Positions 1 to 16,614 of a DNA stretch of 64,000 bases are shown in pieces (the first letter of the stretch is position 1; the number at the start of each line of letters is the position of its first letter). Both the position numbers and the translations under genes were made by a program. The DNA is from Escherichia coli (lineage in GTDB: Bacteria; Pseudomonadota; Gammaproteobacteria; Enterobacterales; Enterobacteriaceae), in assembly GCF_016903815.1 (NCBI RefSeq), contig NZ_CP069973.1. One strand, given 5' to 3'. A model generated the notes under the pieces. It was not told the origin of the DNA, searched no databases, and saw only the letters and a program-made list of their open reading frames with translations.

Positions 1-219
1 GCTGGCGGACACTGTACCGGCAAAATCAATGCCTGGCACCATTGGAAAGTGCCGGACGATAGGCCCGCGGCCCGTAATAGCCAGTGCGTCTTTGTAGTTG
101 ATAGATGAACAGTCGACATTGACCTCCACATCCCCCTGTGGCAGCTCGCTTTCAGCGATTTCAGCAATTTGGGCACTGTGGCGGTCATCCATCTTACTGA
201 TTAATAATGATTTAAACAT
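1..219 (-). CDS. YhdH/AcuI-like NADPH-dependent oxidoreductase (MDR superfamily). Only the N-terminal 73 codons are present; the gene continues past the left window edge.
   Basis: Hand translation of the minus strand from ATG (complement of 217-219) stays open to base 1: MFKSLLISKMDDRHSAQIAEIAESELPQGDVEVNVDCSSINYKDALAITGRGPIVRHFPMVPGIDFAGTVSAS. The NYKDALAITG...PMVPGIDFAGTV stretch matches my recollection of E. coli YhdH. It is missing from the ORF track because the window truncates it. Confidence 0.6.
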   Translation of the reverse strand, partial: MFKSLLISKMDDRHSAQIAEIAESELPQGDVEVNVDCSSINYKDALAITGRGPIVRHFPMVPGIDFAGTVSAS

Positions 220-872
220 TTTTTTTCTCGTCTTTCTGGTTTGATGTCATTGAGCTATAAAGTAGTCAATAAACAATATTGACCGATCGTCTAATAATCA
301 ACGCTGATATCCCAGTGTTTGTCAGAAAACAAGAATTGCTTTTCTTTTCATCAGGTTAAATCTATCTTTTTTGATTTATATCAAACCAGATTCGGTCTTC
401 AATTATATAGGCATCAATGTTAGCGGTCCTACAAGATACGCAGTCGATGCTTCAGGGCGTACTGATGAAATAAAACAAGTAGGCTGAGATTAGTTGGTCT
501 GCTCATCGCTCACAGCGGACCTTCAGCTTCGTTAGCCAAGCGCTGACATAGTTACCGATGTAGCGTGTTAATCTGTCGGGAGCATAGCCGAAATCACTTA
601 ATCCATTAGACTTCACCTAAAACTGCAAAAATTACCGTCTTTGTCACACTCACCGAGTTTAATCAAACTAACACTGTACATAGTGCGAACAAGAGCCAAC
701 CAGAAAGACTGTTCAGCATCAACAGTGAAGTTTTTCCCCGCCACTTCCCCGCAATTCCTCCGCAGTTTTCCCACTAGAGAGTTCGACACATCCCTTGCAT
801 ACCAACGCTTTGATTCAAATCTCGGTAGTGCATCCAATTAGTAGAATATGTGTTTTTCGATAAATGCTCCGA

Positions 873-1232
873 TCACTTTTTCGTGGATCTCAACTGAGCG
901 TGAGAAGCAGATTGTTTACGAGCCAACCGCTTAATGTGGGTGCGTAGCGTCAGATTATTACGCTCAATGCGTTGGGTGAATATTTTGCCGGTCAGATGCT
1001 TATTCTTCGGCACCACCCGGCCATAGCTGTCCCAGTCATCGCTGGTGAGCATGCCGATGTTGAAGGGTGTAAGCAGTGCCAGTAGCTCCCGGCACGTTTG
1101 ATTGGTTCGGGGACCAAAAGTGTAGGCCAGTACACCGCCTGTTTTGGTGTTGTACGCGTACCAGAGCCAGTGTAGCCGGGCTTTACTGCCAACGTAGCTC
1201 CATTGCTCATCAAGCTCGCAGATAAGCGCCAC
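873..1232 (-). pseudogene. insB: IS1 InsB' reading frame with a 3' frameshift
   Basis: The ORF reads ELDEQWSYVGSKARLHWLWYAYN...QRIERNNLTLRTHIKRLARK, then KQSASHAQLRSTKK*. The +1 frame from the same point reads TICFSRSVEIHEKVIGAFIEKHIFY*, which is the expected InsB-type C-terminus. This implies a 1-nt loss in the A-run (plus strand TTT at ~915-917). Confidence 0.75.
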
Positions 1233-1258
1233 ATCAGCATGGGCAACAGGCGAAGAAG

Positions 1259-1531
1259 TTATTTGCGTTGGCGCGAGTTTTTTAAAGTCCGGATGATGGT
1301 GTTAATACCAATTTTCAGTGTCCTGGCGGTATCGCGAACCCCGGCACCATTAAAGGCCATTTCAGTGATCATCTCTTTCATACCCGGCTTACGTGCTTGA
1401 TAAGTATAAGTGAGCTGAAACACACGGTGGCAGTCACGGCAGCGAAATCTGTCACGGCCTTTAGGGTTCTGACCATGGCGGTAAACCTGAGCTGACTGAC
1501 AACGGGGACAATGAATATTAACGCTGGCCAT
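1259..1531 (-). CDS. insA: IS1 InsA-like protein (divergent isoform)
   Basis: The 90-aa ORF MASVNIHCPRCQSAQVYRHGQNPKGRDRFRCRDCHRVFQLTYTYQARKPG... has the zinc-finger CxxC...CxxC plus HTH layout of IS1 InsA. It sits ~55 nt inside the IS end, as in IS1. Confidence 0.85.
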   Translation of the reverse strand: MASVNIHCPRCQSAQVYRHGQNPKGRDRFRCRDCHRVFQLTYTYQARKPGMKEMITEMAFNGAGVRDTARTLKIGINTIIRTLKNSRQRK

Positions 1532-1783
1532 GAGATAACCTCAAAAGCCCGTATTATACATCAGATTCAACCAATTAGAGGCATCACCCTTTCCTACATT
1601 CGTAGGACTTTGATTACATATAGCAAGGGTTAATTCTTATATACATAGAATAAATTAGGAATATAATGAATTTTATCGTGACGACCTTATTTATAATTAA
1701 TTTATATCGTCAGAGAAATTAGTGTCCACAACATGAAGCCTTACAAAGAGATTCTATGATTTAAAAAAAATAAGAGCCAGCTT

Positions 1784-3253
1784 ATGCATATCGATTCGAC
1801 TGAAAAAAATAATAAACAAAAGTTGGGCTTGCTTGCGCTAACATCCATTGTCGTGAGCTCGATGATCGGCAGCGGCGTTGACGGACTCCCCCAGAATATG
1901 GCGGAGAATTCTGCCGTGGGCCCGGTGGCGATAGCATGGATAGTCTGTGGTATCGGCATGTTTTTCATCTCCAGAACTTTTATCGTGCTGTCAAACATTA
2001 GACCTGATCTCCAGTCAGGAGTTTATATGTATGCCCGGGAAGGGTTCGGCCGATTTACGGCATTTAACGTCGCCTGGGGCTACTGGCTGATGACTATATT
2101 CAGCAACGTCGCCTTTGCCATTATGGTGATGGATACGCTGAATTATTTCTTACCAGGTGATTTCAAGGGAGGGAACAATATTCCTTCCGTTATCGGTGCC
2201 TCTTTGCTGATATGGGGATTCAACTTTTTAGTCCTCTCCGGTACCCGCATTGCCGGGTCGATTAACATCGTCGGCACGCTGGCCAAACTGATCCCGCTGG
2301 TGGCCTTTATTATTATTCTCATGCTGTTTATGAAGTACACCACGTTCGCAGATAACGTCTGGGGGCACAGCGCGAGTAAGGCCAGTCAGGACCTAGGCTC
2401 TATTTTCTCACAGGTAACTTCACCGCTTAGCGTGGCACTCTGGAGCTTCATCGGCGTTGAGGGGGCTGTCGCTCTTTCCGGTCGGGCCAAAAATAAACGC
2501 GACGTGGGTAAAGCCACATTCATTGGCTTCGTTGTATCACTGATTATCTGTCTGCTGGTCTCCATCCTGCCGTTTGGCGTGCTGACTCAACATGAGCTCA
2601 GCGCAATTCCAACCCCATCCACCGCCGGTATTCTGAAGATTGTTGTCGGTGAATGGGGGAAGATTATGATTATCTTGGGGGTGCTGATTTCGGTGCTTAC
2701 CAGCTGGCTGGCGTGGACCATCATCTGCGCCGAACTGCCTATGGTGGCCGCGCAGAACGGCACATTCCCGAAACCGTTCAGCAAAAAAAATGTGAAGGGT
2801 TCGGCCTCGGTTTCGCTTTATATAAGCAGTGCGTTTATGCAAATCGTCGTACTTCTGGTCTACTTTTCTAACGATGCCTGGCTTGCAATGCTGGCTATCT
2901 CTACCCTGACCGTTTTACCTGCGTATTTAATGACCACGGCATACCTGTTTAAACTATGTATTAGCGGCGAGTATGCCAGCTATACCACGAATCACAGCCG
3001 CAGCGCCGCGCTGGTCAGCAGTATTATCGGCTTTGTATTCTGCCTGTTTATGTTCTACGCCAGTGAAATCAAATATCTGGCGATGGTTCCGGTGCTGCTT
3101 ACGCTGGGCGTGCCCCTGTTTATCTGGGCAAGAAAAAAAGACGATCGCGCAGATAAAATATTTACGCTACGCGAACTGGCATTTTTTATTTTACTGCTGG
3201 TCCTCGACATCATTGTTTTTATTCTACTGCATTATAAAACGATACATTTTTAG
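1784..3253 (+). CDS. APC-superfamily basic amino acid/polyamine antiporter, ArcD/YdgI-like (paralog 1)
   Basis: A 489-aa polytopic hydrophobic protein. The motifs KLGLLALTSIVVSSMIGSGV.GLPQN, GVYMYAREGFG and LWSFIGVEGAVALSGRAKNKRDVGKAT closely parallel E. coli YdgI / ArcD as I recall them. It is co-directional with the decarboxylase 104 nt downstream. Confidence 0.85.
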   Translation: MHIDSTEKNNKQKLGLLALTSIVVSSMIGSGVDGLPQNMAENSAVGPVAIAWIVCGIGMFFISRTFIVLSNIRPDLQSGVYMYAREGFGRFTAFNVAWGYWLMTIFSNVAFAIMVMDTLNYFLPGDFKGGNNIPSVIGASLLIWGFNFLVLSGTRIAGSINIVGTLAKLIPLVAFIIILMLFMKYTTFADNVWGHSASKASQDLGSIFSQVTSPLSVALWSFIGVEGAVALSGRAKNKRDVGKATFIGFVVSLIICLLVSILPFGVLTQHELSAIPTPSTAGILKIVVGEWGKIMIILGVLISVLTSWLAWTIICAELPMVAAQNGTFPKPFSKKNVKGSASVSLYISSAFMQIVVLLVYFSNDAWLAMLAISTLTVLPAYLMTTAYLFKLCISGEYASYTTNHSRSAALVSSIIGFVFCLFMFYASEIKYLAMVPVLLTLGVPLFIWARKKDDRADKIFTLRELAFFILLLVLDIIVFILLHYKTIHF

Positions 3254-3357
3254 TCCAGATTAATTCACAGCAAGTTAAGGTGACGATAATGTCTGTTTCT
3301 TGGGCATGACATCCTCACAGTTAAATACTATCTGAACAGTAACAGTGGAGACACCTA

Positions 3358-5727
3358 ATGAAATTTAACCACAATCTTTTATTTATTTCCTCACAATATC
3401 TTGATGGCGACAACCCTTCGCAGCAGGTACTGGAAGAGCTTCAAACCGAACTCGCGGAACGCGGTTTTAAAATTCATATCACGCACCAGATCTCTGATGG
3501 ATTAAAAATCATCGAAAAAAGCCCCCAATACAGCGGGATTGGTTTTTACTGGGAGCCAGACAATCCGACCTTTGCAGAAGAGCTACAGCACTTTATCAGC
3601 ATATTCCGCAAAAGAAATGCCACGACGCCGCTGATAATTTTCTCAGAACAGAATATTACCGATCGTATCCCACTCGACGTCTTAAAAGAGGTCAGCGAAT
3701 ATGTTTATCTGTTCTCTGAATCCGCAGCCTTCACTGCCAATCGACTGTACTCCTTAGTCCACCGCTATGCGGATAAGCTTCTTCCTCCCTACTTTAAAAC
3801 CCTTAAGGACTTTACCGAGGACGGTGACTATTACTGGGACTGCCCGGGGCATATGGGGGGAATGGCCTATCTGAAACATCCTGTTGGCATTGAGTTCATT
3901 AACTTCTTTGGCGAAAACATGATGCGCGCTGATATTGGCGTGGCTACCGCGGAGATGGGGGATTATCTGATCCACGCCGGACCGCCTAAAAAATCGGAAG
4001 AAATTGCGGCCCGACTGTTTGGCTCTGATTGGACCTTCTACGGTGTTTCCGGCTCATCGGGGTCGAACCGTATTGTGGCCCAGGCTGCGGTTGGCGCAGA
4101 TGAAATTGCCATTATTGACCGAAATTGCCACAAGTCACTTAATCATGGCCTGACCTTGTCTCAGGCAAGGCCGGTTTACCTGAAACCTACCCGCAACGCG
4201 TGGGGGCTGATTGGGCCTATCCCGACCGGACGCCTGAAGAAGGCCAGTATTGATGCGCTGGTGGCAAACAGCCGACTGGCATCTGGTGCGGTCAGCCAGT
4301 CCCCGTCCTACGCCGTGGTAACCAACTGCACCTATGATGGCTTCTGTTATAACGTGAACGATGTAGTCAGACACCTGGGTGAAAGCGCACCGCGCATCCA
4401 TTTTGATGAAGCATGGTATGCCTATGCGCGTTTCCATCCGCTATACCAGAGTCGCTATGCAATGGACGCGGAGGAAACGCCAAATCGTCCAACCCTATTC
4501 GCCGTACAGTCCACCCATAAAATGCTGCCCTCACTCTCCATGGCCTCAATGATTCATGTGAAGAAAAGCGATCGCGCGCCGCTTAATTTCGATGACTTTA
4601 ACGATGCCTTTATGATGCACGGCACGACCTCACCCTACTACCCGATCATTGCATCAATTGATGTGGCAGTAAGCATGATGGAGGGTGAATCCGGTTATTC
4701 GCTTGTGCAGGAGTCAATTGAAGAAGCGATTGCCTTCCGTAAAGCCGTGGTCAGCGTCAAGCGCCAGCTCCAGGAGCAGGAAGGTGGTGACGCCTGGTTC
4801 TTCGATGTGCTTCAGCCAACCGAAGTGCAGGACAGCGATTCTGGGCAGCGATACAGTTTTGAAGAGGCACCCGTATCGCTGCTGAGCCACAGCGCCGACT
4901 GCTGGTCGCTGCGCTCCGGTGAGCGCTGGCACGGTTTTGCCGATGATGATCTGGTCGAAACCAACAGTATGCTCGATCCAGTAAAAGTGACCCTGACTTG
5001 TCCAGGGATCGGCCCGAAGGGAGAATACCAGAAAAACGGTATTCCGGGATATTTGCTGACCCGTTTTCTCGATGACCGTCGCATTGAAATTGCCCGTACT
5101 GGTGACTACACCGTGCTGATCCTGTTCTCCGTCGGCATCACCAAAGGCAAATGGGGAACTCTGATTGAAAGCCTGCTGGCCTTTAAAAAGCATTACGACA
5201 ATGACGATCTGGCCACAGATGCTATCCCGTCGCTGAAAGCGCATTCTCCACACTACGACACGCTAACCCTCAAGGAGCTATGTCAGATAATGCATGAAAA
5301 AATGGATGAGCTGGAGCTGATGTCGCATATCAACGACGCGGTAAACACCGATCCGGAACCAGTTATGACCCCGGCAGAAGCCTATCAGAAAGTCGTACGC
5401 TACAAAACCGAGCATATCCGGCTGGATGATTTTAGCGGCAGAATTGCCGCCAGCATGCTCGTCCCATATCCCCCAGGCATTCCTGTACTGATGCCGGGCG
5501 AACGGATGCCGCAAGGTAACAAGGGCATTATTGGCTATCTGCGCGCCCTGCAGGAATTCGATAAGCAATTCCCAGGTTTTGAACATGAGATCCAGGGCGT
5601 TAACGTCGATGAAGACGGGGACTTCTGGGTCAGAGCGATTGTGGAAGAAGAACGCGATGGGCAGTCGCTACCCGGCCACATAACCTTTAAACGCCAGGTC
5701 TCTGGTATTAAAAAGGGCCGCCAGTAG
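3358..5727 (+). CDS. Wing-domain PLP-dependent Orn/Lys/Arg decarboxylase (fold type I), AdiA-like; substrate unknown
   Basis: A 789-aa ORF with a GGAG SD 9 nt upstream. Family motifs are DRNCHKS, VVTNCTYDG, IHFDEAWYAYARF, QSTHKML (PLP lysine), VPYPPGIP and FPGFEHE. Overall colinearity with AdiA (755 aa) is from memory, and the C-terminus is ~25 aa longer. Confidence 0.9.
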   Translation: MKFNHNLLFISSQYLDGDNPSQQVLEELQTELAERGFKIHITHQISDGLKIIEKSPQYSGIGFYWEPDNPTFAEELQHFISIFRKRNATTPLIIFSEQNITDRIPLDVLKEVSEYVYLFSESAAFTANRLYSLVHRYADKLLPPYFKTLKDFTEDGDYYWDCPGHMGGMAYLKHPVGIEFINFFGENMMRADIGVATAEMGDYLIHAGPPKKSEEIAARLFGSDWTFYGVSGSSGSNRIVAQAAVGADEIAIIDRNCHKSLNHGLTLSQARPVYLKPTRNAWGLIGPIPTGRLKKASIDALVANSRLASGAVSQSPSYAVVTNCTYDGFCYNVNDVVRHLGESAPRIHFDEAWYAYARFHPLYQSRYAMDAEETPNRPTLFAVQSTHKMLPSLSMASMIHVKKSDRAPLNFDDFNDAFMMHGTTSPYYPIIASIDVAVSMMEGESGYSLVQESIEEAIAFRKAVVSVKRQLQEQEGGDAWFFDVLQPTEVQDSDSGQRYSFEEAPVSLLSHSADCWSLRSGERWHGFADDDLVETNSMLDPVKVTLTCPGIGPKGEYQKNGIPGYLLTRFLDDRRIEIARTGDYTVLILFSVGITKGKWGTLIESLLAFKKHYDNDDLATDAIPSLKAHSPHYDTLTLKELCQIMHEKMDELELMSHINDAVNTDPEPVMTPAEAYQKVVRYKTEHIRLDDFSGRIAASMLVPYPPGIPVLMPGERMPQGNKGIIGYLRALQEFDKQFPGFEHEIQGVNVDEDGDFWVRAIVEEERDGQSLPGHITFKRQVSGIKKGRQ

Positions 5728-5801
5728 GCGGGGGAAAGAACAATACCGTCGGATCGCCTGCAATCCGACGGCAATATTATAGAATAGCTGAGGGAAACGT
5801 T

Positions 5802-7301
5802 ATGGCAGAGCAATCTTCAGATGTAAAAAATAGTGACAATAGCGCCGGAGGACATAAGCTGGGGCTTATATCCCTCATCGCTATTGTCGTTAGCTCCATG
5901 CTGGGAGGCGGCGTTTTCAGTCTGCCGCAAAACACGGCGGCCTCTTCTGCACTAGGGCCAGTAATCATTGCATGGATTATTGCCGGGATCGGTATTTATT
6001 TTATCGCAAACTCCTTTCGCGTACTATCAGATCTGCGCCCGGACCTTCAGGCTGGAGTGTATATGTATGCCCAGGAAGGTTTTGGTTCCTTTATTGGCTT
6101 TAACGTCGCCTGGGGCTACTGGCTGATGACCGCATTTGGCAACGTTGCCTTTGCGGTAATTTTAATGGATGCTTTTAATCAGTTTATGCCGGGGGTTTTT
6201 ACGGATGGTAATAATCTGAACTCCATTATCTGCGGCTCAGTGCTGATCTGGGGCTATAATTTTCTTGTTCTGTCCGGGACGAAAGTGGCCGGATTTGTTA
6301 ACACCTTGGGAACCATCGCCAAGCTCGTCCCTCTGATCCTATTCGTATTACTGCTGGGTGTGCTGATCGATTATTCGGACCTGTTTAAAAACTTTTGGGG
6401 AGAATCACCCGCGATCCTCAGTGGCAACGGAAATGACGCCGCACCAGTATCGCTGCTGTCTCAGATTCTGGCACCGATGACCGTAACGCTCTGGGCCTTT
6501 ATTGGCGTCGAGGGAGCGGTTGTTCTATCCGGACGTGCCAAAAATAAACAGGACGTAGGGAAAGCCACACTGATCGGCTTTCTGCTGGCGCTAATTATTT
6601 ATATGTTAATGTCCATTCTGCCGTTCGGTGTAATGCCTCAGGCAGAACTAGCGCAGGTCAGTAACCCCTCTACCGCAGGCGTGCTCGCCCACGTTGTCGG
6701 TCAGTGGGGCGACTGGCTGATGAGCGCGGGGCTGATTATTTCTGTTCTGGCCGGCTGGCTTGCCTGGACCATGCTATGCGCTGAAATACCGATGGTAGCA
6801 GGACAGAAAGGCGCTTTCCCGCGCGCGTTTGCCCGAACGAACAGTAAACAGGCGGCCAATGTGTCACTGTGGGTTAGTAGCTTTGTGATGCAGGCGGCCA
6901 TGTTACTTGTTTATTTTTCAAATAATGCTTGGACCACCATGTATAATATCAGTGCGCTGATGGTTGTTCCGGCCTATATTACCACCACGCTGTATCTGAC
7001 CAGTATTTGCAGAAACGGAAAATATGATCAGTATGCAAAAAAAGGCCGCAGGCTGGCTTTGTCCAGCGGTGTTTTAGGCTCGCTATTCTGTCTGTTTATT
7101 CTTTACGCCAGCCAGATTGAGTATGTTGCATTAATTCCTATCCTGTTGACCTGTGGTCTGCCGGTCTTTATCTGGTCAAGAAAAGAAAAAAATGATGGTC
7201 AGCCGATATTTACCAAAAAAGAGCTGATTTATCTGATTATGCTGTTGCTGTGCGATATTATCGTCGTTGCCCTGTTTATTGGTGGATATTTAAAGGTATA
7301 A
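5802..7301 (+). CDS. APC-superfamily basic amino acid/polyamine antiporter, ArcD/YdgI-like (paralog 2)
   Basis: A 499-aa polytopic protein with a GAGGGA SD. It has the canonical KLGLISLIAIVVSSMLGGGVFSLPQN TM1 motif and LWAFIGVEGAVVLSGRAKNKQDVGKAT. By eye it is clearly paralogous to the 1784-3253 product but well diverged. Confidence 0.85.
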   Translation: MAEQSSDVKNSDNSAGGHKLGLISLIAIVVSSMLGGGVFSLPQNTAASSALGPVIIAWIIAGIGIYFIANSFRVLSDLRPDLQAGVYMYAQEGFGSFIGFNVAWGYWLMTAFGNVAFAVILMDAFNQFMPGVFTDGNNLNSIICGSVLIWGYNFLVLSGTKVAGFVNTLGTIAKLVPLILFVLLLGVLIDYSDLFKNFWGESPAILSGNGNDAAPVSLLSQILAPMTVTLWAFIGVEGAVVLSGRAKNKQDVGKATLIGFLLALIIYMLMSILPFGVMPQAELAQVSNPSTAGVLAHVVGQWGDWLMSAGLIISVLAGWLAWTMLCAEIPMVAGQKGAFPRAFARTNSKQAANVSLWVSSFVMQAAMLLVYFSNNAWTTMYNISALMVVPAYITTTLYLTSICRNGKYDQYAKKGRRLALSSGVLGSLFCLFILYASQIEYVALIPILLTCGLPVFIWSRKEKNDGQPIFTKKELIYLIMLLLCDIIVVALFIGGYLKV

Positions 7302-7443
7302 GTCCGAGTTAAATCTTTACTGGGCTAGTAATGCCGCCTTTTAAACAAGAAGGGCGGCAATCTTACTGAAATTAGTATGCTGCAAATCGGTAATGCTGCC
7401 AACTTACTGATTTAGTGTATGATGGTGATTTTAAGGTGCTTGC

Positions 7444-7719
7444 GTGGCTTCCATTTCCATCAGATGTCCTTCCTGCTCCGCTACTGAAGGCGTGGTGCGT
7501 AACGGCAAAAGCACTGCCGGACATCAGCGCTATCTCTGCTCTCACTGCCGTAAAACATGGCAACTGCAGTTCACTTACACCGCTTCTCAACCCGGTACGC
7601 ACCAGAAAATCATTGATATGGCCATGAATGGCGTTGGATGCCGGGCAACTGCCCGCATTATGGGCGTTGGCCTCAACACGATTTTACGTCACTTAAAAAA
7701 CTCAGGCCGCAGTCGGTAA
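7444..7719 (+). CDS. insA: IS1 InsA
   Basis: The 91-aa [94 protein letters not shown] is canonical InsA apart from two N-terminal substitutions. Confidence 0.95.
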
Positions 7720-8141
7720 CCTCGCGCATACAGCCGGGCAGTGACGTCATCGTCTGCGCGGAAATGGGCGAACAGTGGGGCTATGTCGGGGCTAAATCGC
7801 GCCAGCGCTGGCTGTTTTACGCGTATGACAGGCTCCGGAAGACGGTTGTTGCGCACGTATTCGGTGAACGCACGATGGCGACGCTGGGGCGTCTTATGAG
7901 CCTGCTGTCACCCTTTGACGTGGTGATATGGATGACGGATGGCTGGCCGCTGTATGAATCCCGCCTGAAGGGAAAGCTGCACGTAATCAGCAAGCGATAT
8001 ACGCAGCGAATTGAGCGGCATAACCTGAATCTGAGGCAGCACCTGGCACGGCTGGGACGGAAGTCGCTGTCGTTCTCAAAATCGGTGGAGCTGCATGACA
8101 AAGTCATCGGGCATTATCTGAACATAAAACACTATCAATAA
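7638..8141 (+). CDS. insB: IS1 InsB' frame (expressed as the InsAB' transposase by -1 frameshifting)
   Basis: The 167-aa ORF contains ...[48 protein letters not shown]...[13 protein letters not shown]. It overlaps the insA 3' end in the -1 frame. Confidence 0.95.
7695..7701 (+). promoter_or_regulatory. IS1 programmed -1 ribosomal frameshift heptamer (A6C)
   Basis: AAAAAAC lies within TTAAAAAACTCAGG at the insA/insB' overlap. This is the established IS1 frameshift signal. The same motif is present in copy B (complement of 10574-10580). Confidence 0.8.
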
Positions 8142-8156
8142 GTTGGAGTCATTATC

Positions 8157-8966
8157 TAACCGTAGCGTTTATTACGCGCAGGTGACGCGTCCTGTTAATG
8201 TGCAAAGAATTGACTTACGAAGTCGGGTGAGGGCTTTCCATGCTCTCAGTCGTGGCGCAGCCGGTAGCCGTGCAATCAGTCAGATGTTGCGCCAGAGTAG
8301 CGTTGATGCAGGCCGGTGGCTGGCACGACGACTGATGCGGGAATGCGGGCTGACAAGTCGACAGATGGTTAAACATCACTACCGGGTCAACGAAGACAAA
8401 AGTCCGCCATTGCCAAATTTACTGAACCGGCAATTTCACCCCGCCGCACCAGACCGCGTCTGGTGCGGCGACATCAGTTTTATTCGCCTGCATGACAAAT
8501 GGTGTTAGCTCGCGCTCGTTGTTGATTTATATTCACGGCGGATTACCGGTTCAGCCCTCTCATTAACCGCTGATGCTGAGTTGGTGTGTAGGGCTTTGCG
8601 TAATGCACTGGAAACACGATCACGTGATGGCCGTCTGCTGTTTCATTCAGATCAAGGTGTTCAGTATAAAAGCAATAAATACAGAAAGTTACTCTGGCGT
8701 TATGGGGTAATGCAAAGTATGAGTTGCAGAGGGAATGGCCTGGATAATTCGCCGATGGAAAGAGTCTTTCGCAGCCTTAAAAATGAATGGCTTCCGAAAG
8801 GTGGTTATGGTGATTTTATCCATGCGGTACGTGATATAAACCAGTGGATTAATGGTTATTACAACGTTTATCGACCTCACACGAACAACGATGGTTTACC
8901 GCCTTGCTTACATGAAGAAAAGTGGAAACAGGTTATTCCGGTGTCCTGATTTTGTGAACCACTACA
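8157..8966 (+). pseudogene. IS3-family (IS911-like end) transposase OrfB remnant, 5'-truncated by IS1 copy A and carrying an in-frame TAG
   Basis: A single frame reads ...[31 protein letters not shown]...[52 protein letters not shown]...[15 protein letters not shown] (rve/DDE integrase core), with a stop at 8506-8508. No OrfA or left IR is present. The right end TGTAGTGGTTCACAAAATCAGGACACC (complement from 8966) resembles IS911-type TG...CA termini. Confidence 0.75.
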
Positions 8967-9115
8967 ATAATCCTTTTTCACAGACTTGTCAGCAGCCAGC
9001 ATTTATGTTCTTTTACCTGCGGGAATTTATCCGTCTGCCTGTCGGGACTACTCTGTCATACAGAAATCAGGTAGGAATAAATTGTAGTGGAAAGTCGATG
9101 TTTACCGGATGACTG

Positions 9116-9667
9116 ATGCGCGCTTGTACACAGACAGTGTGTTTCAGTAATATGGAGAATAATGAAATGAATAACACAGACACATTAGAAAAAATAATCA
9201 GACACCAAAAAAACAAAGACCCCGCATATCCCTTTCGGGAACATTTGTTGATGCAGCTCTGTATTCGCACAAATAAAAGAATGCAGGATAATATATCTGA
9301 ATTTCTGGGGGCGTATGGAATAAATCACTCAGCATATATGGTTCTCACCACATTATTCGCAGCGGAGAACCATTGTCTGTCACCTTCAGAGATAAGCCAG
9401 AAACTTCAGTTTACCAGAACTAATATTACCCGCATTACAGATTTTTTAGAAAAAGCCGGATATGTAAAAAGGACGGATAGCAGGGAGGATCGCCGTGCTA
9501 AAAAAATCAGTCTGACATCTGAAGGTATGTTTTTTATTCAGAGGCTCACTCTTGCACAAAGCATGTATCTGAAAGAAATCTGGGATTATCTGACTCATGA
9601 TGAACAGGAACTGTTTGAAGTCATTAATAAAAAATTACTGGCACATTTTTCTGATGCCAGCTCATAA
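9116..9667 (+). CDS. MarR-family transcriptional regulator, MprA(EmrR)/PapX-SfaX-like
   Basis: The ORF-track protein is 183 aa. The winged-helix region SPSEISQKLQFTRTNITRITDFLEKAGYVKRTDSREDRRAKKISLTSEG parallels MprA [49 protein letters not shown] (from memory). Alternative in-frame starts are at 9152 and 9167. The 9167 start has GGAG 9 nt upstream and gives 166 aa. Confidence 0.8.
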   Translation: MRACTQTVCFSNMENNEMNNTDTLEKIIRHQKNKDPAYPFREHLLMQLCIRTNKRMQDNISEFLGAYGINHSAYMVLTTLFAAENHCLSPSEISQKLQFTRTNITRITDFLEKAGYVKRTDSREDRRAKKISLTSEGMFFIQRLTLAQSMYLKEIWDYLTHDEQELFEVINKKLLAHFSDASS

Positions 9668-10133
9668 AGTGCGAAATATCTGAGGATGCTGGATAGCTTC
9701 AGGCAAGAGAATAATGATTCTTGCAGATGTGTTTTTCCGGATACAAAAACAAAAGTAAAAAATTGCAGCGCCAGGCCACCTTTCAAAGCAGGGAGGCTTG
9801 TACCGCGTCGAAAATTTCAGCCAGTTAATGTAATTGTCTGAACCAGGCACTTCGCCCGGGCAGGAGAAGGAGCGTGGTTGCGGTCATCCTGTATACTGAA
9901 GTCGTTATGAAGGAATAATACAAATAATTGCCCGTTTTCTCTGTACGATAGAGGCAGGTGTGTATGATTGCATCACTATGTTTTTGTGATATAAAAAACT
10001 AAATGGTGAGATATGCATTTTAAAATATAACAAAAATCACCATGAAATAAGAATAATTATCCACGGAGAACATAAACTGCAGACTGTTACAATGCATGCT
10101 GTTCATCTTGACAATGTCGGTAATGACTCCAAC

Positions 10134-10637
10134 TTATTGATAGTGTTTTATGTTCAGATAATGCCCGATGACTTTGTCATGCAGCTCCACCGATTTTGAG
10201 AACGACAGCGACTTCCGTCCCAGCCGTGCCAGGTGCTGCCTCAGATTCAGGTTATGCCGCTCAATTCGCTGCGTATATCGCTTGCTGATTACGTGCAGCT
10301 TTCCCTTCAGGCGGGATTCATACAGCGGCCAGCCATCCGTCATCCATATCACCACGTCAAAGGGTGACAGCAGGCTCATAAGACGCCCCAGCGTCGCCAT
10401 CGTGCGTTCACCGAATACGTGCGCAACAACCGTCTTCCGGAGCCTGTCATACGCGTAAAACAGCCAGCGCTGGCGCGATTTAGCCCCGACATAGCCCCAC
10501 TGTTCGCCCATTTCCGCGCAGACGATGACGTCACTGCCCGGCTGTATGCGCGAGGTTACCGACTGCGGCCTGAGTTTTTTAAGTGACGTAAAATCGTGTT
10601 GAGGCCAACGCCCATAATGCGGGCAGTTGCCCGGCAT
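10134..10637 (-). CDS. insB: IS1 InsB' frame
   Basis: A 167-aa ORF identical in protein sequence to the copy A InsB' ORF. Confidence 0.95.
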
Positions 10638-10831
10638 CCAACGCCATTCATGGCCATATCAATGATTTTCTGGTGCGTACCGGGTTGAGAAGCGGTGTAA
10701 GTGAACTGCAGTTGCCATGTTTTACGGCAGTGAGAGCAGAGATAGCGCTGATGTCCGGCAGTGCTTTTGCCGTTACGCACCACGCCTTCAGTAGCTGAAC
10801 AGGAGGGACAGCTGATAGAAACAGAAGCCAC
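10556..10831 (-). CDS. insA: IS1 InsA
   Basis: A 91-aa canonical InsA ([21 protein letters not shown]...). Confidence 0.95.
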
Positions 10832-11360
10832 TGGAGCACCTCAAAAACACCATCATACACTAAATCAGTAAGTTGGCAGCATCACCCAATCTGCTGACAG
10901 ACGAAGATAATGAACCCGTTATGGTTTTTAACGGAGAGAGGAATGTACTGGCAGACAGTCTGAAACCACAGCCTCTGATTCTTCCGGTCAAGGGAAAATA
11001 AGCGTAATGTTCATCACCAGATTATGTACGATGAGTTTTCCACTGTTTATAGCAATTATCTTGCTAATAACCAGACAGGAGTAACCAGACCAACCGAAAA
11101 CACCGGGAAGGTGATTACCCGCTGGCAGAGGAAATCCGGTTTTTTTTGATGTCAGCCATAACGTGTTTGACAATAAAGCATCATGAAAGGGTGTTAATGA
11201 GTCCATGGGATAATTCATAAAAATAATTTACTGTGTTATCCTTTTCAAAAGAAATATTCAGAAGATAACCCCTGGCTGACAACCAGGGGAAGGGGGCATT
11301 AACAGTGTTATTATTGGTGAATAAATTATTACTTGTGTGCAGGATACACTAATGCAATAT

Positions 11361-12434
11361 CTACTGATACTGTATGCCAGTATGTTTCATGCCTGCCGCT
11401 GAAAACGGCAATATCCAGGGCCAGACATATTCACCATTCATATTTCTGCATTTCTGTACAATTTTCTCAGAAAGCGTCTCATCAATTCTTTCACGCAACT
11501 TCTCCTGCTGTCTTAAAATACTTTCGCATATTTCGAAATCATCTTCCTGCATCAGCATTTCGGCGCATTTAATGATTTCTGCCCGTTCATGCAGCACAGA
11601 GGAATGATTATAGAGCCAGTTTACAAACAGCAATGCTTCCGGATATTGCCCCCATAACGGGTGGTATGTGGCATAATAATCTTCGGCAGTATCCGGACCG
11701 CCTGAAAAGTTATGCCATACAGCAAGTGGAAATGGATGCAGATTTCCGCACAGTATTTCTGCGATGTAAGTATTTGCCGCAAAGCCGCGACGAAATGCAG
11801 TTGCAGCTTTTACCAGTTCCCCATTAAGAAAATGCAGAAGGCCGAGTTCATACCAGTAAGGTGAAAATTCATCTGCATGTTCCTGCAGTATATGGCGTGC
11901 CTGTTCATGAGCGCCAGTGCGTAACAGTTCCGGTCCCAGTAGCCAGCGTGCACCATGATTATCTTCGGGATTGTAATCCAGTATTTTTTCAATGAGCATG
12001 ATGGCATCCTGATGACGCCGTAAATGTGCATTTGCCAGGATTGCCGCATAGAGGGCACGAAGAAAAGGTCGGTTGTCAGGATGTATCCAGATGATTCTGC
12101 CACTGAAACCTTCAGGGATAAGACGATTGCCAACTGCCAGCCCTTTAAGGGCAGCATTCAGCGCCTTACGCGGGGCATTCTGCTCCAGAAATACGTATGC
12201 CAAGTGAGCGTGTACATCAATAAAGTCATTCTCCTGTCGGGCAAGGCGCCTGAGTTTGTTGATGTAACTTGTTTCGCTGATTTCATCCGCATCGTATGCA
12301 TCAATCAGTTCTTCAAACTCATCCAGCAACGAGCCAAACCAGGTTTCCGGAAATATGAAACAGCCCTGGTTATCGTTCACTTCAAAGCGTAATTTGCCAG
12401 TCATATTCTGAACCTGTAAAAAAGGATGGACCAT
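11361..12434 (-). CDS. Hypothetical helical-repeat (TPR-like) protein, island cargo next to the integrase
   Basis: A 357-aa ORF. Its A/L-rich amphipathic repeats (e.g. AHLAYVFLEQNAPRKALNAALKGL, RALYAAILANAHLRRHQDAIMLIEKILDYNPEDNHGARWLLG, YWYELGLLHFLNGELVKAATAFRRG) look TPR-like. I recognised no catalytic motif. The more likely start is ATG at 12404 (AGG ~10 nt upstream). Confidence 0.6.
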   Translation of the reverse strand: MVHPFLQVQNMTGKLRFEVNDNQGCFIFPETWFGSLLDEFEELIDAYDADEISETSYINKLRRLARQENDFIDVHAHLAYVFLEQNAPRKALNAALKGLAVGNRLIPEGFSGRIIWIHPDNRPFLRALYAAILANAHLRRHQDAIMLIEKILDYNPEDNHGARWLLGPELLRTGAHEQARHILQEHADEFSPYWYELGLLHFLNGELVKAATAFRRGFAANTYIAEILCGNLHPFPLAVWHNFSGGPDTAEDYYATYHPLWGQYPEALLFVNWLYNHSSVLHERAEIIKCAEMLMQEDDFEICESILRQQEKLRERIDETLSEKIVQKCRNMNGEYVWPWILPFSAAGMKHTGIQYQ

Positions 12435-12659
12435 AACCTGCAGGCTATAAAAATTGTGATGCCTGGCATCGGTGTCCTTTTATTGTCCGGGATTAACGTT
12501 GCCCATGATAATACAGTGAATTCTGTTCTGTGGTAAGACGTTGAGTTATTGAATGAGAACCTCAGCCTGGCTGATGGTTCCGCCGGCATAAAAAAGAAAT
12601 TGATTGAGGCGGGTGCTCTTCCCCTTAAGAGGAAGAGCATGTGTGTAAATGGCGTTCAG

Positions 12660-13925
12660 TCACCTTTTCAGTGGATTGTTAACTTTTGCATATTCAAACG
12701 GACTGATACACTCCTCCCTGTTTGCATCCAGAAAATCTGCCCACCATTGCAGCATAAGCCGACGTTCTTCCAGATGTTCTGCTTTATGAATATACGCGGC
12801 ACGTACTCCGTTGCGCTCCTGATGACTCATCTGACGTTCAACCGCATCTCTTGACCATAAGCCGGATTCAATCAATGCACTGCACGCCATCGCCCGGAAT
12901 CCATGGCCACAGACTTCCTTGGTTGTGTCATACCCCATCACCCTCAGGGCTTTATTTACAGTATTTTCACTGATTGGTTTACGCGGGTCATGTGCACCCG
13001 TAAATATCAGACCATTTTCACCTGCCCATGTCTGAAGTTCTGTCAGTATGGCTACAGCCTGTTTACTGAGTGGCACAAGATGTGGTGTCCGCATCTTGGA
13101 GCCCCGGTGTGAGAATTTTACGCCAGGCAGAGGTTCGCGTTCGGCTGGAATAGTCCACATGGCATTGTCAATATCAATTTCAGACCAGCGGGCATATCTG
13201 AGTTCACTGGAACGAATAAAAACCAGTAAATTCAGCATAACGGCAAGCCGGGTGACAGGCTGGCCTTTATAACCGTCAATACGCGACAGAAGTTCAGGCA
13301 GGCGTGAAAGATTCAGAGCGGGGCGATGCTGGCGTTTTACCGTGGTCAATGCACCAGCCATATCCAGAGCCGGGTTATATCTGATGATGCCAGACTGTAC
13401 GGCGTAACGCATTACAGCAGATATTCTTTGCTGCAGACGACTAGCGATTTCATAAATTTGTTTTGCTTCTGCAGCACGAACAGGGATAAGCAGGTCCGGG
13501 GTATTGAGTGTTGTGATATCCCGGTTGCCGATAAAGGGGAAAACGTGTGTCTCGAGGCTTTTGAGTACTTTATCGCTGTGTGATTGTGCCCATTGTTTAT
13601 TACTGGCATGCCAGCGTCGTGCAATATGTTCAAAAGAGAGCTGTAAATCAGGGACTACTTTTTTAACTCTTTTCTGTTCGCAAGGGTCAATCCCCTCTGA
13701 AATCAGTTTTCGGGCCTCATCCCGTTTTGTACGAGCTTCGGAGAGAGAAACTTCTGGATACACACCAAGTGCCAGAGTCTTCTCCTTACCCAGAATACGA
13801 TAACGGAGACGCCAGTAACGGGAACCATTAGGATGAACCAGCAGGAACATGCCGGCCCCGTCAGTGAGTTTATAAGCCTTGTCAGTGGGCTTTGCAGCCC
13901 GGATTTTTGCGTCAGTCAGTGCCAT
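12660..13925 (-). CDS. int: P4/CP4-57-type tyrosine integrase
   Basis: A 421-aa ORF MALTDAKIRAAKPTDKAYKLTDGAGMFLLVHPNGSRYWRLRYR... (typical P4-integrase N-terminus). The C-terminal catalytic region has HGFRAMA...RAAYIH. It lies directly beside the 3' end of tRNA-Phe in the same orientation. Confidence 0.92.
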   Translation of the reverse strand: MALTDAKIRAAKPTDKAYKLTDGAGMFLLVHPNGSRYWRLRYRILGKEKTLALGVYPEVSLSEARTKRDEARKLISEGIDPCEQKRVKKVVPDLQLSFEHIARRWHASNKQWAQSHSDKVLKSLETHVFPFIGNRDITTLNTPDLLIPVRAAEAKQIYEIASRLQQRISAVMRYAVQSGIIRYNPALDMAGALTTVKRQHRPALNLSRLPELLSRIDGYKGQPVTRLAVMLNLLVFIRSSELRYARWSEIDIDNAMWTIPAEREPLPGVKFSHRGSKMRTPHLVPLSKQAVAILTELQTWAGENGLIFTGAHDPRKPISENTVNKALRVMGYDTTKEVCGHGFRAMACSALIESGLWSRDAVERQMSHQERNGVRAAYIHKAEHLEERRLMLQWWADFLDANREECISPFEYAKVNNPLKR

Positions 13926-14084
13926 AGTTCAGCCTTCTGAATGCGTTAAAGAGGGTATAAATTCTGTCGAACTGGGGTATGCCCACAATTATACCCACAC
14001 AATGAGGTTGATGTGGGGGGAATCTGGTTGAGTTCGGTAGAATTGATTTGGAGGCAGGACGCTTAAATCGTGGCGTCCTGGAAT

Positions 14085-14111
14085 GAAAAACGGACCTCCG
14101 TGGAGGTCCGT
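14085..14111 (-). terminator. Rho-independent terminator downstream of tRNA-Phe
   Basis: On the minus strand, the hairpin CGGACCTCCACGGAGGTCCG is followed by TTTTT, 12 nt after the tRNA 3' end. Confidence 0.7.
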
Positions 14112-14122
14112 TGATATGAATT

Positions 14123-14198
14123 TGGTGCCCGGACTCGGAATCGAACCAAGGACACGGGGATTTTCAATCCCCTGCTCTACCGACTGAGCTATCCGGGC
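14123..14198 (-). tRNA. pheU: tRNA-Phe (GAA)
   Basis: The minus strand reads GCCCGGATAGCTCAGTCGGTAGAGCAGGGGATTGAAAATCCCCGTGTCCTTGGTTCGATTCCGAGTCCGGGCACCA, which is E. coli tRNA-Phe with encoded CCA. Its position next to yjdC-dsbD identifies it as pheU. Confidence 0.97.
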
Positions 14199-14916: not shown

Positions 14917-16614
14917 TCACGGTTGGCGATCGCGCAAATGTGCGCTGAAGGTTTCAGCATCCATAAAGCCCGTGACGCGTGCTTGTGGATGCTCCTGGCC
15001 TTGTCCGTCAAAAAAGAGAATTGTCGGTAGGCCAAGGACATTAAGATGCTTTAACAGCGCCACATCTTGTGCGTCGTTGGCAGTGACGTTGGCCTGAAGT
15101 AATACCGTGTCTGCTAACGCTTTTTGCACCTGCGGGTCGCTGAAGGTGTATTTCTCAAACTCTTTACAGGCGACGCACCAGTCGGCATAGAGATCTAACA
15201 TCACTGGTTTGCCTTTGGCTTCAACGAGCGCCTGATTTAACTCATCTACCGTTTTGATTTGTGTAAAGTTGAGATGCGTCTGAGTTTGCGCGGTATGCGT
15301 CGCACCAAATGCCCAATCCTGAAGTGGGCGCACGCTAACCAATGCCGCTGCCAGCAGGATTATTTGCACCACGCGCATCCAGCCGCGTTTGGCCTGTAGG
15401 CTGGTGATAAAGGCCCAGCCAAAGAATGCGACACCAAGCGCCGACCACAAGCGTAATCCCCATATATCACCAATCACTCGCTCCAGCAGGAAGACCGGCA
15501 GTGCGAGGATCACAAAACCAAACGCGGTTTTGACTTGTTCCATCCACGGGCCGCTTTTCGGCAGCAAGCGGTTACCAAAGACGGTAATTAGCATCAGCGG
15601 CAGGCCCATGCCCAACGCATAGAGATAAAGCGTGCCGCCCCCCAGCCACATGTTCCCGCTTTGGGCGATATACAGCAGAATCGCGCTAAGCGGTGCGGTG
15701 GTGCATGGTGAACAGATCAGTCCGGCAATCGCCCCCATAACAAACACACCGCCAGGTGAGCCGCCCTGTTGGCGATTGCTCATCAGCGTGAGACGTGTTT
15801 GCAGCGAAGAGGGGAGTTGCAGAGTAAACAAGCCAAACATTGACATCGCCAGCAAGGTAAAGACGATAGCGAGGCCAATGAGCACGTATGGGTGCTGTAG
15901 CGCCGCCTGGAACTGTAACCCTGCGGCGGCAACCACCAGACCCAGTGCCGTGTAAGTCAGCGCCATCCCCTGCACATAAATAAAGGTCAGCAACAATGCT
16001 CTGGCAGTGGAGAGCCGCTGTTTACCGCCCAGCACGATACCAGAAATCAGTGGGTACATTGGCAGCACGCATGGCGTAAAGGCGATACCAATACCGATCA
16101 ACAACGCCCAGAGCGCGGAAAAGGGCAATTGCGCGGTGGGCTGCTCTTGCTGCGGAACAGACACAGGCTGTGACGCTGCGTTGTTGGCGACCACTTCGCT
16201 TAACGGAACGGTTTTGGTTTCTGGCGGATAACAGAAACCGGCATCAGCACAGCCCTGGTAGGTGATAGTTAACGTCGCTCCCGCACTCGCCTGGTTGATG
16301 GTGACGGGAAGCGTCAGCCGATCGCGGTAAATCTCGCTTTTGCCGTAAAACTCATCTTCATGCCAGACGCCTTGCGGCAGCTGCACGTCGGCAATTTTCG
16401 CGTGTTCCGGCGTAATGCGGATCTGTTTACGGTAGAGGTAGTAACCGTCTTTGATCTGCCAGGTCAGATTCAGGTCATGTTGGTTTTGCTGAAAATCAAA
16501 AGCAAAGGCTTGATCCGCGGGGACAAATTGTGAACGTCCCGGCGCGTCGAATAATCCGGCAAAAACGGAAGTGCTGCAAAGTAGCAGGATCAGCGTAAAG
16601 ATGCGTTGAGCCAT
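14917..16614 (-). CDS. dsbD: Thiol:disulfide interchange protein DsbD
   Basis: Matches K-12 DsbD from [20 protein letters not shown] (565 aa). The ORF-track start 81 nt further upstream was rejected. The gene overlaps the cutA 3' end by 25 nt. Confidence 0.95.

Follow-up and report, generated by a model that had tools for sequence, protein, structure and literature searches.

IS1-family elements as probable seams of a mosaic tRNA-Phe island in Escherichia coli: a hybrid IS1 copy and a papX segment found in two orientations

We examined a 64,000-nucleotide stretch of Escherichia coli DNA (the window; contig NZ_CP069973.1 of assembly GCF_016903815.1) in which insertion sequences (ISs) of the IS1 family delimit parts of a genomic island. 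Window positions 1-14198 form the integrase-proximal end of an island at a tRNA-Phe gene (pheU), beside dicD, and the remainder is core chromosome, as judged from the annotation of E. coli strain 7/2 and from domain and tRNA scans; the first 12 kb recur, at 100% identity, in the chromosome of strain 7/2 and in many further clinical isolates. There are only three IS1-family copies in the window: a divergent element on the minus strand (824..1588), copy A on the plus strand (7389..8156) and copy B on the minus strand (10119..10886). The first two enclose a decarboxylase module, and A and B enclose, in inverted orientation, a 1,962-bp segment that carries papX. An earlier note, drawn from the letters of this DNA alone, had given these coordinates and the flanking strings, all of which hold; it had also described the 1,962 bp as a segment with a MarR gene between inverted IS1 copies, which is correct once that gene is recognized as papX. 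We consider it very likely that the three elements are seams of a mosaic tRNA-Phe island, and that their missing target-site duplications record rearrangements rather than simple insertions.

The module (1589..7388, plus strand, 5,800 bp; assigned by Pfam domains) consists of three plus-strand genes, encoding an antiporter (1784-3253), a 789-residue decarboxylase of the Orn/Lys/Arg family (3358-5727) and a paralogous antiporter (5802-7301); the two antiporters are ~55% identical to each other. The decarboxylase reaches no NCBIfam equivalog cut-off, its best score being 740 bits with the arginine decarboxylase model, whose cut-off is 1167. Among the 5,426 complete E. coli genomes that served as our comparison set, the module is present in 494-510 (~9%), and it has no match among the 72,556 plasmids of our plasmid set. 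Relatives with the module and without IS1, which the earlier note had proposed as a comparison, do exist: the same gene order, with no IS1 within 6 kb, occurs in Klebsiella, Citrobacter, Providencia, Serratia, Commensalibacter and Bordetella, at protein identities of 77-81% in the other Enterobacterales and Commensalibacter and of 68-69% in Bordetella.

The segment between A and B (8157..10118, plus strand as written here) is found in either orientation among E. coli genomes. It opens with the 3' part of an IS3-family element (8157..8949, plus strand; rve and HTH_21 domains), whose 5' end is cut off by copy A, and continues with papX (9116..9667, plus strand), a MarR-family regulator gene recognized by its MarR domains and by the papX annotation in related genomes. 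This gene normally stands at the end of a pap fimbrial operon and is an orphan here; a scan for promoters and terminators around it gave nothing decisive. Beyond copy B lies a conserved island end block (10887..14198, minus strand; from annotation, domains and the tRNA scan), with a small open reading frame (ORF; 10988-11218), a TPR protein gene (11361-12434), a P4-type integrase gene (12660-13925) and the tRNA-Phe gene pheU itself (14123-14198). The same block follows copy B in CE10, ST131, ST648, S88 and others. On the far side, the 12 kb of island interior upstream of the window, read in strain 7/2, are a dense patchwork of IS2, IS3 and IS30 fragments, a group II intron with its reverse transcriptase, truncated type VI secretion genes and a PAPS-reductase/IbrB-like gene pair.

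The divergent element, 765 bp long, forms the left boundary of the module. Its ends are fixed exactly by aligning four independent insertions of this IS species, among which homology begins at GGTAGTGCATCC and ceases at GAGGCATCACC. With ends set in this way by independent copies, IS1-type terminal repeats and an insA/insB' organisation, it belongs to the IS1 family; both of its reading frames match NF033558 (the IS1 family transposase model), and the A6C motif is conserved. The element is only ~53% identical to A and B, and blastn gives no cross-hit between them. It is decayed, as had been claimed: relative to 766-bp copies of this species, two of which are annotated as intact, it carries a 1-nt deletion near 918 and a few substitutions, and RefSeq annotates it as an IS1 family transposase with a frameshift, so that it lacks the intact transposase of an active copy.

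Copies A and B are each 768 bp long, and RefSeq annotates both as having an intact transposase with a programmed frameshift. They were detected as an inverted repeat of 766 nt with 98% complementarity, its detected arms lying 1,966 nt apart; the full 768-bp ends were read directly. Both size and ends fit IS1 (~768 bp, with imperfect terminal inverted repeats of ~23 bp, GGTGATGCTGCCAACTTACTGAT / ...AAGTTGGAGTCATTACC), copy A departing from these repeats by G4A on the left and C767T on the right. The two ORFs of A (7444-7719 and 7638-8141) are mirrored in B; they correspond to insA and insB', joined by a -1 frameshift at the conserved A6C motif TTAAAAAAC, and both frames match NF033558. A and B differ at 14 positions: 13 sites within the first 91 bp, plus the penultimate base of the element. 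Clustering of this kind marks a hybrid rather than general divergence.

A four-way alignment with the elements at the same place in CFT073 and 1303 resolves copy A into a left part derived from a module-linked IS1 variant (7389-7515), an exchange interval (7516-7544) and an IS1A-type right part (7545-8156), which is identical to copy B save for a T at 8155. All 16 diagnostic sites of A between element positions 4 and 127 agree with the CFT073/1303 variant. Those from position 157 onward all agree with B, except for the penultimate base (767), at which A alone has T. The elements in CFT073 and 1303 sit at the identical junction, CTGCAAATC|GGTAATG, and are decayed, with ~90% identity to B, small deletions and a stop codon. 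What lies to the right of the module-linked IS1 differs from genome to genome: the middle of an IS3-family element in the window, a block of ykgR, glycosidase, MFS and LacI genes in CFT073, and a phosphoethanolamine-transferase fragment in 1303. An IS that is itself a chimera and links unrelated DNA gives direct evidence that two IS1 copies recombined, and this evidence is stronger than an absent duplication. The idea that IS1-IS1 recombination had remodelled the island, which had been proposed from the flanks, is thus borne out by a hybrid copy that joins the module to mid-IS3. Copy B is not the reciprocal product of this event. Outside a 28-bp patch it is IS1A-type throughout, and hence the hybrid was not made by a single crossover between A and B.

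None of the three elements is flanked by a direct repeat. The flanks read TCAAATCTC|CTTTCCTAC at the divergent element, CTGCAAATC|TAACCGTAG at copy A and GACAATGTC|CAATCTGCT at copy B. With ends shifted by up to 3 nt and lengths of 7-10 nt tested, no direct repeat with fewer than 2 mismatches in 7 was found at any of them, and under the same shifts no reverse-complement pairing of flanks exceeded 5 nt. Redefining the IS ends by alignment (the four divergent-element insertions and ten IS1 copies) left the ends unchanged, so that the earlier report of no 8-9-bp duplication stands on either definition. We also considered the 6-nt CAAATC common to the left flanks of the divergent element and copy A; its geometry is wrong for any duplication, and we treat it as chance. 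Because rearrangement accounts for the missing 8-9-bp duplications at A and B, their lack is no evidence against the identity of these copies as IS1. The right flanks of the module-linked IS1 in the window (TAACCGTAG, 8157-8165) and in CFT073 (AACGGTAAA, 15561-15570 of the extracted locus) are alike, sharing AAC-GTA at a one-base offset. The DNA around the two is otherwise unrelated, and the resemblance is probably due to chance or to IS1 target preference.

To count orientations of the papX segment, we built an inverted-junction query by joining the module's final 600 bp to the reverse complement of 9519-10118, so that both halves fall together on one strand only in genomes with an inverted segment. 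This query was fully covered in 174 of the 5,426 genomes, over a span of 1,968 bp (600 + 768 + 600), and the control junction query for the window orientation was fully covered in 89. In 272 genomes the right end of IS1 abuts TAACCGTAG. A 12-kb query had returned 166 genomes, a number that is wrong as a count of the window orientation, since this query is still at least 80% covered when the segment is inverted and so mixes the two classes. A third query placed 72 of the 174 inverse-type genomes at pheU.

In ST648 the inversion is exact: both junctions could be read base by base, and the segment differs from that of the window by one substitution and one 1-nt gap. Both orientations of 8157-10118, which the earlier note had recommended looking for, therefore exist among complete genomes, and each does so at both tRNA-Phe sites. 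The window strain and EcPF7 carry the window type at pheU, and TUM1586 and 1000C-3 carry it at pheV; FDAARGOS_1279 and S88 carry the inverse type at pheU, and ST648 and MS6198 carry it at pheV. These data show that the 1,962-bp papX segment has been inverted at least once and that both orientations are common in nature. The further suggestion that the A/B pair can still invert the segment stands as far as history goes, on the 89 and 174 genomes, and not as a statement about ongoing activity, for which the mosaic of single-nucleotide polymorphisms (SNPs) described below suggests import instead. Since A and B are two apparently intact 768-bp repeats, identical over ~610 bp, a remaining ability to invert is plausible; inversion is shown only as a historical event.

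We then tabulated the diagnostic sites of A and B in the same eight genomes. The module-type tract in copy A reaches to position 127 in the window strain, EcPF7 and TUM1586, to position 157 in FDAARGOS_1279, MS6198, S88 and 1000C-3, and to position 293, with position 380 in addition, in ST648. Module-type alleles also occur in copy B, where they range from no sites, or position 127 only, to positions 100-127 (window), 64-157 (1000C-3) and 40-157 (S88). The patch in the window's copy B comprises A-type alleles at element positions 100, 103 and 127 (window 10760-10787). In each case the partner A keeps the alleles that the B copies carry. An unchanged partner A, together with several tract lengths in B, indicates that A-to-B transfers were non-reciprocal and took place several times.

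Across 11.3 kb of adjacent core chromosome, 1 SNP separates the window strain from FDAARGOS_1279, but the papX segments of the two lie in opposite orientations. Near-identical though the pair is, we do not take it to prove that the segment flipped in place recently, since the SNP mosaic speaks for import. Ten sites between 184 and 4230 place the window with inverse-type islands; six markers (5614, 8155, 8943, 12019, 12134 and element position 127 of copy B) group it with window-type islands. The integrase gene and attachment-site region (window 12942-14121) differ from those of FDAARGOS_1279 by 45 SNPs, and the integrase allele of the window, WP_029701734.1, differs from the allele common to CE10, ST131, ST648, S88 and TUM1586. 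These integrase-region SNPs look like a recombination patch that ends at the tRNA gene. The pattern of sites suggests that the orientation block was imported by homologous replacement, starting between 4231 and 5614 and extending to at least 12134, possibly to 14121.

Islands that lack the module show where the right part of the window probably comes from. The order in CE10 is papI, papB, papA, an IS1, a papE-like gene, papF, papG, a full-length IS3-family element, papX and a minus-strand IS1, after which follow the small ORF, the TPR protein, the integrase and tRNA-Phe. TAACCGTAG occurs there once, in the middle of the IS3 element, preceded by GGTAT. Both junctions of copy B are identical in CE10 and ST131, islands without the module; copy B and its duplication-free junctions thus pre-date the fusion with the module and belong to a pap-type island end. 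Homology to the papX region linked to foc/sfa stops exactly at the B junction, which implies that B replaced the DNA that formerly lay downstream of papX.

A further IS1 stands directly after papA in the pap-type pheV islands of CE10 (5532-6300 of the extracted locus) and ST131 (5232-6000 of the extracted locus). In CE10 it precedes the papE-like gene, papF and papG; in ST131 it abuts the equivalent of window position 8860, 256 bp upstream of papX. A comparison of these two junctions indicates that an IS1-adjacent deletion took away the remaining pap operon and the IS3 element in ST131. In nine genomes (e.g. VR50 and DLI.6n), an unrelated IS1 lies ~518 bp (in one case ~930 bp) further into the IS3 element than TAACCGTAG, so this short element has been hit by IS1 repeatedly.

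These comparisons show the main steps of the history. The decarboxylase operon, with the frameshifted divergent element on its left, originally had on its right a second IS1 variant, ~10% diverged from IS1A, which persists in position, decayed, in CFT073 and 1303. In the lineage of the window, this variant recombined with an IS1A-type copy inside the IS3 element upstream of papX to give hybrid copy A, which fuses the module to a pap-type island tail consisting of the IS3 fragment, papX, IS1 B, two ORFs and the integrase. Other steps we infer. The IS1A-type partner may have inserted simply into the IS3 element or been generated from copy B through a duplicative inversion, and the fusion itself may have come about when direct repeats recombined and the DNA between them was deleted. 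Copy B would owe its missing duplication to an earlier IS1-adjacent deletion on the downstream side of papX.

Several points weigh against this history. The parental arrangement, in which the 5' part of the IS3 element and TAACCGTAG run into an IS1, is present in 0 of 5,426 genomes. A deletion is not separable from more complex routes to the fusion, and no genome-wide search for the reciprocal product was made. The A/B mosaics are not derivable from one another by a single crossover and need several steps. The history does not account for the absent duplication at 824-1588; three other aligned copies of this IS species (on a katP plasmid and two chromosomes) likewise show no obvious 8-9-bp duplication at their ends. 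Finally, the T at 8155, which changes the right repeat to ATTATC instead of ATTACC, is present in 4 of 4 window-orientation genomes sampled and in 0 of 4 inverse ones, and was rejected as a mark of every window-orientation genome: at most 62 genomes carry it, against 89 with that orientation, so that it is no general marker. This base might impair the use of that IS end.

The rival that fares best holds that IS1 transposition chemistry, namely duplicative inversion or adjacent deletion by copy B, rather than RecA-type recombination, made the inverted-repeat cassette and set its orientation; we regard it as possible, on the doubtful side. Starting from a CE10-like island, one intramolecular replicative transposition of B into TAACCGTAG would give a second, inverted IS1, would at the same time invert the IS3-papX segment, and would leave no direct duplication at either copy, all of which fits the inverse-type junctions of ST648. 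IS1-adjacent deletions are also evident close by, as the different neighbours of the papA-side IS1 in ST131 and CE10 show. However, a chimeric IS cannot come from transposition, and homologous exchange is required for hybrid A as well as for the conversion tracts of varying length in B. The intermediate that transposition into the IS3 element should leave is the same arrangement that no genome in the set contains. Transposition would therefore cover at most the origin of the cassette, and neither the fusion of the module nor the A/B mosaics, for which recombination between IS1 copies is the reading that we retain.

It is very unlikely that the decarboxylase module is or was a composite transposon, carried into the island by the two IS1-family elements that bracket it, as the earlier note had suggested might be so. 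The divergent element is constantly to the left of the module (494 records of the element and 496 of the module, each at at least 99% identity), the identical right junction holds an IS1 in every genome examined, and the operon occurs in other genera with no IS1 nearby, so that its IS elements were gained in or near E. coli. Yet the bracketing elements are of two IS species, with different terminal repeats in addition to their low identity, which makes it unlikely that one transposase acted on both. The left element carries a frameshift, the element originally on the right is decayed, and in the oldest-looking arrangements neither is active. The unit 824-8156 has no duplication at its outer ends, its left flank TCAAATCTC being matched neither by TAACCGTAG in the window nor by AACGGTAAA in CFT073 or TGGTTTTTG in 1303. 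The left outer flank, a fragment of an alcohol-dehydrogenase gene, is the same in all seven full-length islands read, and only the right flank varies. In the complete genomes and plasmids searched, the unit was not found at unrelated sites with an 8-9-bp outer duplication, nor, as stated above, is the module on any plasmid of the set.

IS1 does form composite transposons, among them Tn9, with direct IS1 copies, and Tn1681, with inverted IS1 copies around a heat-stable toxin gene. The unit made of IS1 A, the IS3 fragment, papX and IS1 B resembles Tn1681 in having inverted IS1 copies, annotated as intact, around a short payload, with left-end repeats that face outward. It differs from Tn1681 in its outer flanks, CTGCAAATC and CAATCTGCT, which form no duplication, and in its constant position, the papX unit lying between the module and the same small ORF in all eight genomes read. 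In the window strain, moreover, the inner end of A has a terminal-repeat mutation.

Programmed invertible switches, such as fimS with FimB/FimE or the hin and gin systems, are another comparison that a segment with two orientations invites. The likeness is that of a short segment that carries or controls a regulator and exists in two orientations. Unlike those systems, the papX segment encodes only an IS3 transposase fragment and papX, with no dedicated invertase; the repeats are whole IS1 copies, not short specific ones; and the 2.7 kb upstream of papX are the same in both orientations. The segment thus lacks the marks of a site-specific switch, and within-strain switching is not supported. 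A slow, recombination-driven switch, with each state kept in the species by an advantage in certain niches, is also very unlikely. With the segment placed as in the window, papX is a same-strand gene downstream of the decarboxylase/antiporter operon; with the segment inverted, it lies downstream of the integrase-side genes. If the switch reading were true, read-through could tie motility repression to induction of the operon in the window orientation.

We also asked whether the two orientations could be assembly artefacts, given that 2 kb between 768-bp repeats can be placed either way and that short-read or hybrid assemblies orient such a segment unreliably. We find this barely credible. Orientation co-segregates with SNPs, namely 5614 in 7 of 8 sampled genomes (the S88 locus stops short of it) and 8155 in 8 of 8, and it also correlates with the mosaic tract lengths inside the IS copies. 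The inverse form is carried by the Sanger-finished genomes of S88 and APEC O1, and counts of 89 and 174 with a consistent lineage structure are unlike random orientation. Three independent simple insertions whose duplications were lost by point mutation or never made deserve equally little credence: the three other insertions of the divergent species that lack obvious duplications may mean that the rule is weak there, or that those copies were rearranged too, but the flanks of A come from unrelated sequences (operon end and mid-IS3 element), the left flank of B continues differently in the foc/sfa-type papX region while its right flank is contiguous with the left in no relative, and flanks otherwise 99-100% conserved among genomes make nine mutated bases not credible.

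Seams of this kind fit what has been described for E. coli islands at tRNA-Phe genes (pheV/pheU), which are mosaics of gene modules that are separated by insertion sequences and have differing histories (PMC11537424). Those islands share with the present one a P4-type integrase beside tRNA-Phe, IS-delimited modules and partial pap clusters that include papX, and the SNP mosaic seen here agrees with that picture. The terms "decarboxylase" and "inversion" are absent from that article, and the module, the hybrid IS1 and the inversion polymorphism of the papX segment are apparently not described in it. Homologous recombination between IS copies is known to produce inversions and deletions in E. 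coli and Shigella genomes (e.g. PMC8072062). The likeness to this general phenomenon extends to inverted IS copies acting as portable homology, inverted intervening DNA, chimeric ISs and lost duplications. The present case differs from it in scale, 2 kb here against tens to hundreds of kb there, and in being resolved to the base, since one of the recombining partners was a diverged IS1 variant.

The case is thus a well-resolved example of known IS-mediated inversion, deletion and formation of IS chimeras, and it is not a new mechanism, a composite transposon or a programmed switch. Such inversions, deletions and chimeras are textbook processes, and existing knowledge of IS1 and of island evolution is unchanged by the result. 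What it adds is that ordinary IS-driven remodelling of this island is now documented rather than inferred. Absent target duplications are a hint only; a diverged IS1 variant, serving as a natural marker, makes crossover and conversion tracts readable base by base. Because a short-read assembly can place a 2-kb segment either way, the orientation of the papX segment is unfit as a lineage marker without long reads. As for the tRNA-Phe islands themselves, homologous replacement carries their modules from strain to strain and from one of the two sites, pheU and pheV, to the other. The uncharacterised decarboxylase operon is probably the more interesting biology of the region.

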